This document shows positions 40,705-62,037 of a stretch of DNA of 64,000 nucleotides, piece after piece (position 1 is the stretch's first letter; each line of letters starts with the position of its first letter). Under the pieces are notes generated by a model. That model saw nothing but the letters and a program-made list of their open reading frames with translations, ran no database searches and was not told the DNA's origin. Source of the DNA: an uncultured delta proteobacterium (GTDB taxonomy: Bacteria > Desulfobacterota > RBG-13-43-22); contig CAVUPH010000013.1 in assembly GCA_963743305.1 (NCBI GenBank), positions 64,001 to 128,000 of the forward strand, given 5' to 3'. The translations under genes were made by a program, and so were the position numbers.

Positions 40705-41277
40705 ATGCTGCTAAAAAGGTTTGCCCTTCGCATGTTGGGCGTGGTTTTCTTCATTTTGATCAGTATGCACTGTTCATTGATTTACTCGGCCGAGACCCTT
40801 CCCCCGGGAAGTAAAATTCCGGATTTTGAATTAAAAGGTCCTGCCTCACCCCAAACAAAGGCCTATCTAGAGGTTAGTGATGAAAAGCTATTTTCTTTAT
40901 CGCAGATTAAGACGAAAGTCGTTTTGATCGAATTTTTCGACGTATTCTGACCCGTGTGTCAAAAAAACGCGCCTGTGGTCAACAGGGTCTATAATTTATT
41001 TAAGGAAGACAAAAAGTTGAGTAAAGATTTCAAAATGATCGGCATTGCCATCGGAAATCAGCCCGAAGACGTGTCCTCTTATAAAAAGGCTTTTAAAATA
41101 GACTTTCCCTTGTATGTCGACCCCAAGAAAGAAATCGCCAAAAAGGCAAAAGTGCCAGCCGTCCCCCTTACCATTTTGGTGGACAAGAACGGTAAAGTCC
41201 TCATGAGTCACTCCGGTCCCATAGGGAACTTTGATGCTTACCTAATGGAGATCAAAAAAAAGTTACAGGCGCAATAG
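40705..41277 (+). CDS. TlpA/ResA-like thioredoxin-fold selenoprotein with UxxC motif (TGA 40948-40950)
   Basis: ORFs 40705-40950 and 40954-41277 are in frame; readthrough gives LIEFFDVF-U-PVC-QK; cis-Pro motif AVPLTILVDKNG; SECIS-like hairpin CCTGT-GGTCA-ACAGG at 40972-40986. Confidence 0.9.
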
Positions 41278-44140: not shown

Positions 44141-44845
44141 ATGACCCAGACGATCACCCGGGATAAGACTTTTCAGGTTGTTATGAAACGAATGGTGGAA
44201 AAGGGGCGGGCCCCGCATTATACGGAAATTGCGTCGGAGTTGAGGGTTTCAGTCGAAGAAGGCAGGAAGGCCCTTCACGACCTCCATTTCCCGGGATTTC
44301 CCGGTTGGCTGGCTCCCAATACGGATTATATCTCGTCATTTCCGCCATTCAGCAACCTGCCCACACAATACCGCATCACTATTGAGGGTCGGCAGGATTG
44401 GTTCGGCCAATGAGGGTTTGAGTCGCTGGCGGTCAGCTGGCTCTTCCCCGGGAAAACGGTCCAGGTCGATGCCCCTTGCCTCGATTGCGGTTCTCCGATC
44501 AGGATCCGTATGAAAGATGGTAGATTAGAAAGTACCGATCCCGAAAACCTGGTAGCCTACACCTCGGTCCCATTCCGGGAATGGTTTAATAACCTCCCCT
44601 ACGCCTGAAGCACCATGAATCTCTTCCGGTCGGAAGAGCACGTTCGTAACTGGAGTGGATTTAAAACGAAGACCGAGGAAGGCATCATTCCTTTATCCGC
44701 AATGGTCAATGTCTTCTCGGGAAATTTCTTCGCGAAGAGGCTGGATCCGGATTATATGTCGCACTTTCAGGAGTATATTGGTGAATTCATTTCGACGGTC
44801 AAGGAAATCGGGAAATCCCGTCCATTTTGGGCACCCGAGTCTTAG
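44141..44845 (+). CDS. MerB (organomercurial lyase)-like protein with two selenocysteines (U91, U156; 234 aa)
   Basis: AAGGAGG RBS; in-frame TGAs at 44411 and 44606; reads PFSNLPTQYRI..WFGQ-U-GFE..DAPCLDCGSPI..PYA-U-STMNLFRSEEH; hairpin after each TGA. Confidence 0.88.
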
Positions 44846-60775: not shown

Positions 60776-61225
60776 ATGTCCTTGCAAATCCTCAAGATAG
60801 CCGCGCAGATTCGCCGAGTTATCAACCGGTCCATGTTCCTGGAGAAACGGACCATTTTGCGCCATGAAGCCCTGCGGCTTTATCCCTCGGAAATCCATCT
60901 GCTGCAGGTCATCCACGAATCCCCGGAACTGAGCGCCGGGGAAATGGCTCGGAAGTTGGGCATCAGCATTGGAGCCGTGTCCCAGACCCTGAATCGGCTG
61001 GAGAAAAAAGGGGTTATCCATAAGACCAAGGACCCGGCCCTTAAAAACAGGCTGTCGGCCAGATTGACCGGGGTCGGACAAACGGCTATCCGGCAATTCG
61101 AACAAGGGCAGGAGGTTACGATGAAGGCGTTTTCCAGCTACCTGGGCGGATTGTCAAACGGAGAAAGAAAGGTTGTCGAGGGATTTCTATCCCACTTGGA
61201 GGAATTCTTGAAACGCCTGGAGTAA
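60776..61225 (+). CDS. MarR family transcriptional regulator
   Basis: SEIHLLQVI, GISIGAVSQTLNRLEKKGVI and LTGVG motifs. Confidence 0.9.
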   Translation: MSLQILKIAAQIRRVINRSMFLEKRTILRHEALRLYPSEIHLLQVIHESPELSAGEMARKLGISIGAVSQTLNRLEKKGVIHKTKDPALKNRLSARLTGVGQTAIRQFEQGQEVTMKAFSSYLGGLSNGERKVVEGFLSHLEEFLKRLE

Positions 61226-61275: not shown

Positions 61276-62019
61276 ATGAACAACAGTTTGCTGACCGGCT
61301 TTTGGCGTACCATGGTGGGAGTGCCTCCCTTTCTTTGGGAGAAACAGATTAAAAAGACAAGACAAAAAGTTACAAAGGCCATGGCTTTCATGTCACCGGA
61401 CCATCGCCGGGTTCATCACTATGTGGTCCGGGAGTTGCCGCGGATAGGGGGTCCGCTGGAGGCGGAAAGGGTGGCCCGGGATCTGGTCTTGTCCGTGGAG
61501 CGGACCATTGAAATTTTACAGGATCTGGAGAAGCATTTGACCTTTCTGGTTCGGAACGAGCAGGGGCAGGTCGTCTGGGCCTACCCGGTTACTGTGGAGA
61601 AAACCCCACACCGGATCAGCTTTGGATCAGGGGAGCAATTGTATTCTGCCTGAGCGGTGGACGCTTTCGCGACGCCCTTCGTGCAAGGGCGACTGAGACA
61701 GGAGCAGGTGGTTATTCAGGTGGAAACGGAATGCGCCCATTGTAAAGAGCCCATGCGCCTGGAAATCGACAGCGATATGCATTGCCATGGCCAGGAGTCC
61801 GGAGACAACTTGATTATTTTTGTCCCCGACGTGGATTTCGGACGCCTGAAAGATCCCACCATCATCGAGGCCTTCTGAAAAGAAAGCGTTTTCTTCCGGT
61901 CGGAAGAGCACGCCAGGGCGTTTCGAAGGAAAGAGCATCGAATCCGTGGTGCGTATTTCACCACCGTTCAGATCGCTTATTTAAATAAGGCCATCCAAAG
62001 CGCCATCTTTGGCTGGTGA
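61276..62019 (+). CDS. Second MerB-like protein with two selenocysteines (U126, U201; 247 aa)
   Basis: AGGAGG RBS; in-frame TGAs at 61651 and 61876; reads AYPVTVEKTPHRI..LYSA-U-AVDAF..TECAHCKEP..EAF-U-KESVFFRSEEHA; hairpin after each TGA. Confidence 0.88.
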
Positions 62020-62037
62020 ATATCGGGGCGGAAGGAA

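Follow-up and report, generated by a model that had tools for sequence, protein, structure and literature searches.

Two divergent MerB-like genes with paired in-frame TGA codons share the probable core of a coding-region SECIS, near-invariant across their family

Within a 64,000-nucleotide (nt) stretch of an uncultured delta proteobacterium (Desulfobacterota, RBG-13-43-22; contig CAVUPH010000013.1, positions 64,001 to 128,000, hereafter the window), two MerB-like genes, A and B, each interrupted by two in-frame TGA codons, carry the same 21-mer, TCTTCCGGTCGGAAGAGCACG. This 21-mer is very probably the core of a bacterial selenocysteine insertion sequence (SECIS) that lies in the coding region and directs selenocysteine (Sec) at the second UGA of each gene. 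The copies are exact, at 44622-44642 in gene A and 61892-61912 in gene B; each begins 14 nt past the A of the second in-frame TGA and is read in frame as (L/F)-F-R-S-E-E-H-(V/A). No third match was found in the window at up to three mismatches, two matches arose in none of 100 shuffles, and the whole 4,912,098-base genome held no copies beyond these two. The 21-mer was the only exact word of 10 nt or more common to the genes, the next longest being 9 nt, and the 45 nt on either side agreed at only 16/45 and 9/45 positions. The two proteins are 26% identical, with FRSEEH as their sole identical run. The first-pass annotation of the window had described an identical element encoding FRSEEH, 14 nt after the second TGA of two otherwise divergent paralogs with differing flanks, and every part of that description was borne out.

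Gene A (44141..44845, + strand) has 234 codons from an ATG at 44141, a start that is uncertain, and its frame is open when TGA is read as U. Its TGAs are codons 91 (44411..44413), at the MerB Cys96 position in the context W-F-G-Q-U-G-F-E where homologues have Cys, and 156 (44606..44608), at the MerB Cys159 position. Gene B (61381..62020, + strand) starts at ATG 61381 or farther upstream, stops at TGA 62018-62020, and has its in-frame TGAs at 61651..61653 and 61876..61878. The two UGAs are separated by 192 nt in gene A and 222 nt in gene B. Both genes matched PF03243 across both TGAs, at 78.2 bits for gene A and 57.4 bits for gene B (cut-off 27), and homologues of gene A were 60-74% identical over the full length. 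The alignment to a solved MerB covers gene B only; against MerB2 (PDB 5C17), both of its TGAs fall on the two catalytic cysteines. The first, in Y-S-A-U-A-V-D-A-F, aligned with F-A-W-C-A-I-S-T-L (...YSAUAVD... opposite ...FAWCAIS...), and the second with the Cys of ...GGTCKQIHYFSSVEH, where ...EAFUKESVFFRSEEHARAF of gene B stands opposite ...GGTCKQIHYFSSVEHANKW of MerB2. An acidic residue follows three places past the first catalytic site in both genes (U-A-V-D in gene B, U-G-F-E in gene A). The MerB catalytic residues were traced in both genes, with Sec as the predicted replacement of both Cys. At the location of FRSEEH, the solved Cys-type MerB2 has YFSSVEH, a comparison that shows [FY]-F-x-S-x-E-H to be an old protein motif of the MerB family, and FRSEEH to be in part a protein-level motif.

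Neither gene was assigned to a named MerB class. The best score against models of MerB proper was 58 bits for gene B with NF009710 (cut-off 193), and NF033555 gave 46.8 bits (cut-off 200). The SaoL model, NF040728, gave 42.2 and 45.5 bits against a cut-off of 140. SaoL is further marked by a single Sec in a C-U dipeptide at the second catalytic site, where the two genes, each with two Sec positions, read Y-A-U and A-F-U.

To characterize the putative SECIS elements, we folded 48 nt from each UGA. In gene A, the element at 44615..44647 (+ strand) contains the 21-mer and had a minimum free energy of -13.2 kcal/mol. It consists of a lower stem at 44615-44620/44642-44647 (AUGAAU/GUUCGU), an upper stem at 44621-44627/44632-44638 (CUCUUCC/GGAAGAG), and a GGUC loop at 44628-44631. 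In gene B, the element at 61886..61913 (+ strand) likewise contains the 21-mer, and its minimum-free-energy fold (-14.7 kcal/mol) made up 72% of the ensemble. Here a lower stem at 61886-61889/61910-61913 (GCGU/ACGC) leads through a 1x1 internal loop into an upper stem at 61891-61897/61902-61908 (UUCUUCC/GGAAGAG), again capped by GGUC (61898-61901). Each gene thus forms a lower stem of its own, as the first reading of the sequence had it. The upper stems folded alone gave -9.1 and -7.1 kcal/mol. In genes A and B alike, 19 nt separate the UGA from the loop, as is also the case in all 195 F-R-S-E-type homologues described below. According to the accessible text of PMC13188914, the bacterial SECIS consensus has a loop of 3-9 nt, an upper stem of 4-16 base pairs (bp), a spacing of 16-37 nt from the UGA to the loop, a G at loop position 1 or 2 with G or U next in line, and an energy of at most -7.5 kcal/mol. 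Both second-UGA hairpins agree with each of these items, with a 4-nt loop that begins GG, a 7-bp stem, and a 19-nt spacing.

Whether the 21-mer is peculiar to this genome was addressed with homologues. Of 202 genes read with TGA at the second site, 195 were of the Sec-type F-R-S-E form: 38 from genome searches, 77 from a one-genome-per-species set, and 80 from metagenomes. They represent 169 distinct 57-mers; the collections overlap, and some species are perhaps counted twice. The 14-nt core TCTTCCGGTCGGAA was present in 178/195 and the exact 21-mer of the window in 53/195. From these counts, the identity of the two paralogs is the family consensus and not a peculiarity of the source genome. 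Recent gene conversion over a short tract could also have given the two paralogs an identical 21-mer, and the genes do lie on the same strand 17 kb apart with that one exact word in common. Yet the flanks are chance-like in identity, the 21-mer and its core recur in many species and in soil metagenomes, and the A and B orthologues in sister genomes do not differ from each other in this stretch. With the word and core found across the homologues, no exchange within the source genome is needed, and we consider gene conversion very unlikely.

The hairpin codons were found to be nearly fixed. Among the 195 genes, TTC occurred in 194, CGG in 192, TCG in 187, and GAA in 194; counted per residue, CGG encodes 192/193 Arg, TCG 187/188 Ser, and GAA 194/195 of the first Glu. 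Codons just outside the upper stem vary (AAC 96/AAT 81 and CAC 108/CAT 77). The alternative that the identity reflects protein-level conservation of FRSEEH together with codon bias and involves no RNA role draws on a constraint that acts on the peptide itself, since Cys-type MerB2 also has [FY]-F-x-S-x-E-H and Cys-type relatives have FFSSEE. Codon bias, however, does not extend to the neighboring codons of the same genes. Arg codons 5-7 positions downstream (n = 253) were CGC 149, CGG 32, CGA 30, CGT 25, AGG 14, and AGA 3, and the second Glu, next after the fixed GAA, was GAG in 142 and GAA in 30. GAA was retained even in GC-rich soil genes, where other codons are mostly GCG, CGC, and similar. 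Cys-type genes, moreover, use TTT, TCT, TCC, TCA, and GAG at the hairpin places, and the amino-acid changes within Sec-type hairpins come in compensating pairs. We regard this alternative as having almost no chance of being correct.

A pairing analysis that covered 150 of the 169 distinct sequences found the upper stem 97.4% paired, versus 40-55% with the partners slid by 1-3 columns. Stem changes were few and mostly compensatory, with CTC...GAG alternating with TTC...GAA, and changes on both sides were seen in three of the seven pairs (CG 99/UA 18/UG 8; UA 144/GC 3; CG 148/UA 1). In one gene (L033), TGG...TCA turns a C-G pair into U-A through R to W together with a silent TCG to TCA change. 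In three others (L015, L018, L034), L to C combined with E to A (TGC...GCG or GCA) replaces a U-A pair by G-C. The second loop base (column 24) was G in 150/150 aligned sequences and the first (column 23) was G in at least 90%, with A at the first loop base in one of the 195 genes (L253). Loop positions 3 and 4 were looser, with GGGG, GGGC, and AGGC variants. The lower stems of genes A and B were also tried as a conserved element and rejected, as only 62.7% of cells were paired across the 150 sequences and pair 10-42 was unpaired in 124; an alternative AUG/CAY lower helix was 77.8% paired, without double changes. Selection on the RNA as the source of the identity at synonymous sites is supported by the fixed hairpin codons beside free neighbors, by the compensatory changes, and by the loss of the hairpin in a close Cys-type homologue.

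That homologue (L095) has Cys at both sites and reads CTC TTT CGA TCG CGG GAA, encoding FRSREH; the hairpin cannot form, through a mixture of synonymous and other changes. More widely, Cys occupies the second-UGA column in MerB2 and in nine Cys-type relatives. The 14-mer was absent from all nine parsed Cys/Cys genes, which use varied codons (TTC AGC TCG GAG, TTT AGC TCT GAG, TTC AGC TCC GAA, TTT CAT TCA GAA). For the exact FRSEEH peptide, the Cys side of the Sec-versus-Cys comparison proposed in the first-pass annotation came down to L095.

A parallel contrast was observed at the first catalytic site. There, the stem GCUGGC/GCUGGC formed all six pairs in 104/106 UGA genes and in 0/82 Cys genes, and the loops of the UGA genes were GGUCU (43), GGUCA (29), AGUUU (16), and others. 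In gene A this first-UGA element, a putative SECIS at 44425..44441 (+ strand), has a GGUCA loop 17 nt after the UGA and -7.3 kcal/mol. The candidate for gene B, at 61673..61691 (+ strand), has the stem CGCCCUU/AAGGGCG and a CGUGC loop 26 nt after the UGA (-9.8 kcal/mol), and a CGUGC loop recurs at this place in 6/7 B-type genes. Four Cys-type genes (L039, L041, L047, L052) have the potential for a 7-12 bp hairpin at the place of the second-site element, because F-F (UUY UUY) and E-E (GAR GAR) codons are complementary. This potential may be left over from a SECIS that was lost, or the helix may have come first and made Sec easier to gain.

Among the genes of the source genome are those for a full-length SelB (363 bits, model positions 1-580) and a tRNA-Sec (75 bits, TCA anticodon). 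With this machinery beside the hairpin anatomy, the family-wide base conservation, and the contrast with Cys types, we infer SelB binding and actual Sec insertion. In the proposed mechanism, as the ribosome reaches the UGA, the downstream mRNA would fold into the 7-bp stem with its GGUC tetraloop 19 nt past that codon. SelB carrying Sec-tRNA(Sec) would bind the loop and deliver the tRNA, the UGA would be read as Sec, and the ribosome would then melt the hairpin while translating it as (L/F)-F-R-S-E-E. The same bases would therefore do two jobs, encoding F-R-S-E-E-H and pairing, with TTC against GAA, CTC or TTC against GAG or GAA, and the C of CGG against the G of TCG, while the loop must offer G-G. 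Almost every base would be fixed in both paralogs because the peptide and pairing constraints act on the same letters. If so, this is an unusually clean natural case of dual coding, in which protein and hairpin fix nearly every base over 14 nt, across several phyla with very different codon usage and with amino-acid swaps in compensating pairs.

Several observations weigh against this reading. The folding energies were unexceptional compared to shuffles, with z of -1.5 and -1.3 and 17 and 23 of 200 shuffles as good, although the experimentally known fdhF element of E. coli reached a z of only -0.67 by the same comparison. In a 60-nt context, gene A had a competing fold at -15.9 kcal/mol versus -13.2 kcal/mol for the SECIS fold, and its upper stem had a pair probability of 0.09. 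In Rfam, neither hairpin matched a SECIS or any other credible family, at the gathering threshold or at E-values up to 10. The exact-peptide Cys control is thin, consisting of DNA from the single homologue L095; the remaining Cys-type genes carry FFSSEE, FFHSEE, or more distant motifs, and the DNA of the Cys-looking F-R-S proteins P0049, P0050, and P0074 lay outside the comparison. The evidence for Sec machinery refers to SelB and tRNA-Sec, the two components searched, with selA and selD outside that search. Finally, the source genome has a second tRNA of interest, at C14: 92 nt long, with a GCA anticodon, a discriminator U, and an 8-bp acceptor stem.

This last tRNA raises the possibility that the hairpins are read wholly or partly by a selC*/selB* pair, with one or both UGAs translated as Cys, for example at low selenium. 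The tRNA-Sec-like gene lies 58 nt upstream of SelB-like reading frames (C14:98758-100799; L002, L004), the layout that the available text of PMC5389517 describes as the selC*-selB* arrangement of Syntrophobacterales and Desulfobacterales. The portion of PMC13582414 that could be consulted likewise allows that a selC*-type tRNA in a genome may lead to Cys at one UGA or at both. However, the complete canonical SelB and tRNA-Sec are also present in the source genome, and the SelB-like gene at C14 is split over two frames of 465 amino acids (selB model 1-342) and 213 amino acids (525-580). Nothing ties this pair to the MerB-like genes in particular, and the same hairpin is found in 80 soil metagenome genes, the selC* status of whose genomes was outside the survey. 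We consider decoding by the selC*/selB* pair unlikely, and a SECIS that directs Sec at the second UGA stays by far the more probable function of the 21-mer.

To explore how widespread such genes are, we searched 401 genomes of the phylum. PF03243 was found in 66 of them, with 89 matches, comprising 67 with two TGAs, 10 with one, and 12 with none. Within the taxonomic family of the window, 16 of 20 other genomes had such genes, in up to five copies each. A one-genome-per-species scan returned 451 relatives. Among the best 80 of these 451, 76 had TGA at both sites, one had Cys then TGA, one was Cys/Cys, and two were unparsed; these 80 are mostly from Desulfobacterales, Syntrophales, and Thermodesulfobacteriota metagenome-assembled genomes, with single members from Poribacteria, Dehalococcoidia, and Thermodesulfovibrionales. 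One-Sec relatives were common in soil metagenomes: in a metagenome scan seeded with Cys-looking relatives, 80/80 genes returned combined a first-site Cys with a second-site TGA.

Public protein databases represent these genes poorly. Entries P0001-P0013 have Trp at both UGA positions, as if translated with a code in which TGA is Trp, while entries of ~155 amino acids (P0058, P0092, P0104) end at residue 155, exactly before the second UGA, and some of the shortened entries are named organomercurial lyase. Gene callers thus break or mistranslate the MerB-like two-Sec genes. Our full-text search for a two-Sec MerB-like family in print, which did not extend to supplements, gave SaoL only. We see an evenly balanced case for the broader proposition that genes A and B belong to a large uncatalogued family in which both metal-ligand cysteines are Sec, each with its own SECIS; that this is the dominant MerB form in the phylum; and that, where selC*/selB* is present, as in the source genome, selenium supply might decide between Sec and Cys at the two UGAs. 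Two selenols in one MerB-type site, if true, would be relevant to the organometal chemistry of anaerobes.

The first-pass annotation had further proposed GGUC as a lineage SECIS signature that could reveal hidden selenoproteins, having seen it at the apex of a hairpin in a TlpA gene and of the first hairpin in gene A. Both of those apexes do carry the motif, as GGUCA, and the first hairpin of gene B departs from it with its CGUGC loop. The first of these genes, Redoxin/TlpA-like, shares its strand with gene A and precedes it by 3 kb. It has a TGA at 40948-40950 in the motif U-P-V-C, a PF08534 Redoxin match that spans the TGA, and a SECIS-like hairpin at 40972..40986 (+ strand) with the stem CCUGU/ACAGG and its GGUCA loop 26 nt after the UGA.

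We evaluated the signature on 25 sites in the source genome, of which 16 came from a codon-score screen with Pfam matches across the TGA, four were weaker, and the rest were the Redoxin site and the four MerB-like sites. Three of the 25 (two CCG-domain proteins and one cytochrome) lack a Pfam match across the TGA, and the set is a sample of the selenoproteome, as the codon-score screen itself missed gene A (score about 0). A GGUC-type loop was present at 6/25 sites: one FdhA, a CMD-domain site, the Redoxin gene, and three of the four MerB-like sites. Two HdrA sites had AGGU then C, the other loops were of GGU, CGGGU, GGA, GGG, GGC, or GUG types, and two sites had no clear hairpin. Since E. coli fdhF also has a GGUC loop, the general bacterial consensus of PMC13188914 itself calls for G[G/U] where the loop begins, and only 6/25 sites show GGUC here, it is not a lineage signature. 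The suggested genome scan for TGA-stem-GGTC-stem was also tried as a selenoprotein finder and rejected. It gave 22 open-frame hits, compared with 6-47 for eleven other loop words; 3/22 were true sites, and six that were tested proved false, with no Pfam family and out-of-frame-like composition. The scan is neither sensitive nor specific.

The exact hairpin, for its part, led only to further MerB-like genes. The 14-mer CTTCCGGTCGGAAG occurred 66 times in the 401 genomes, 52 times inside PF03243 matches, compared with ~21 matches for a reversed control word. Six of the 14 occurrences outside MerB-like genes were inspected, and in none was the F-R-S-E frame preceded by a TGA at the spacing of a SECIS. 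Therefore, the near-invariant 14-mer is a DNA barcode of the protein family, not of the SECIS elements of the lineage, and the hairpin core can serve as a specific probe for MerB-like genes.

Several of the other sites in the source genome are recorded here as candidates in their own right. An RtcB RNA ligase (C20:86465; L068) has an in-frame TGA at the conserved cysteine of ...G-Y-D-I-N-C-G..., with PF01139 matching across it at 420 bits and a weak downstream hairpin (loop CGGGUU, 4 bp). At C28:46951 and 47236 (L073, L085), one frame with SAM-methyltransferase and CMD (AhpD-like) domains contains two in-frame TGAs, the second followed 17 nt downstream by a CCUUGC-GGUC-GCAAGG hairpin. A URO-D family protein (C28:67184; L067) has a TGA near its C-terminus (F-A-P-G-U-D) and the hairpin UGUUCC-GGU-GGAACA. 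Two paralogous Fe-S/CCG-domain proteins (C7:219316 and C23:10653; L077, L078) have in common a TGA in E-U-G-H-A; their Pfam stretches stop short of spanning it, and the second has no clear hairpin.

The surroundings of genes A and B were scanned over 15 neighboring reading frames, which contained no mercury-resistance family. Among their products are a MarR regulator, MauE/DoxX, a cNMP-binding rhodanese protein, and acyl-CoA enzymes. The genes thus sit in neither a mer operon nor an SAO locus, and gene A is preceded by unrelated genes. The MarR-family regulator (60776-61225, same strand) is directly upstream of gene B and possibly forms one operon with it. The codon-usage score was near zero for gene A (-0.003 to 0.06) and 0.08 to 0.26 for gene B, the low score hinting that gene A was acquired from elsewhere.

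The RNA element itself is textbook. The SECIS of E. coli fdhF, whose loop bases contact SelB, is, like the second-UGA hairpins described here, a coding-region hairpin that follows its UGA directly and is capped by a GGUC tetraloop. When folded from NC_000913.3, its loop starts 18 nt past the UGA, compared to 19 nt in genes A and B. The two differ in that fdhF has an unrelated stem sequence with a bulged U in the upper stem and a long lower helix, while genes A and B have an uninterrupted 7-bp upper stem and a short, unconserved lower one. The bSECISearch consensus, in the accessible text of PMC13188914, leaves the stem sequence free, whereas in the MerB-like genes the stem bases hardly change from phylum to phylum, since the protein, too, fixes each stem codon.

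Among known selenoproteins, SaoL is the MerB-like member of the SAO locus (Haft and Gwadz, bioRxiv 10.1101/2022.07.06.499078). As far as the available text of that preprint goes, SaoL resembles genes A and B in belonging to PF03243 and in having Sec at the MerB Cys159 position, but it has a single Sec in a C-U dipeptide within a nine-gene locus, while genes A and B have two Sec positions, no C-U, and unrelated neighbors. Three SaoL-like genes of the phylum with the C-U motif (L037, L038, L043) place a hairpin on the F-F and (E/K)-(E/K) codons, at the same location, with UGUAC, UGUCA, and CCGUACA loops instead of GGUC. A comparable contrast between Sec and Cys forms has been described for Group 4 [NiFeSe] hydrogenases. 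There, in the portion of PMC13582414 consulted, the loop G is kept in the Sec type and lost in the Cys type through synonymous or conservative changes, and the Cys-type relatives still show hairpin-like folds. The hydrogenases are another protein family, and the MerB-like genes are set apart by having two putative SECIS elements for two well-separated UGAs.

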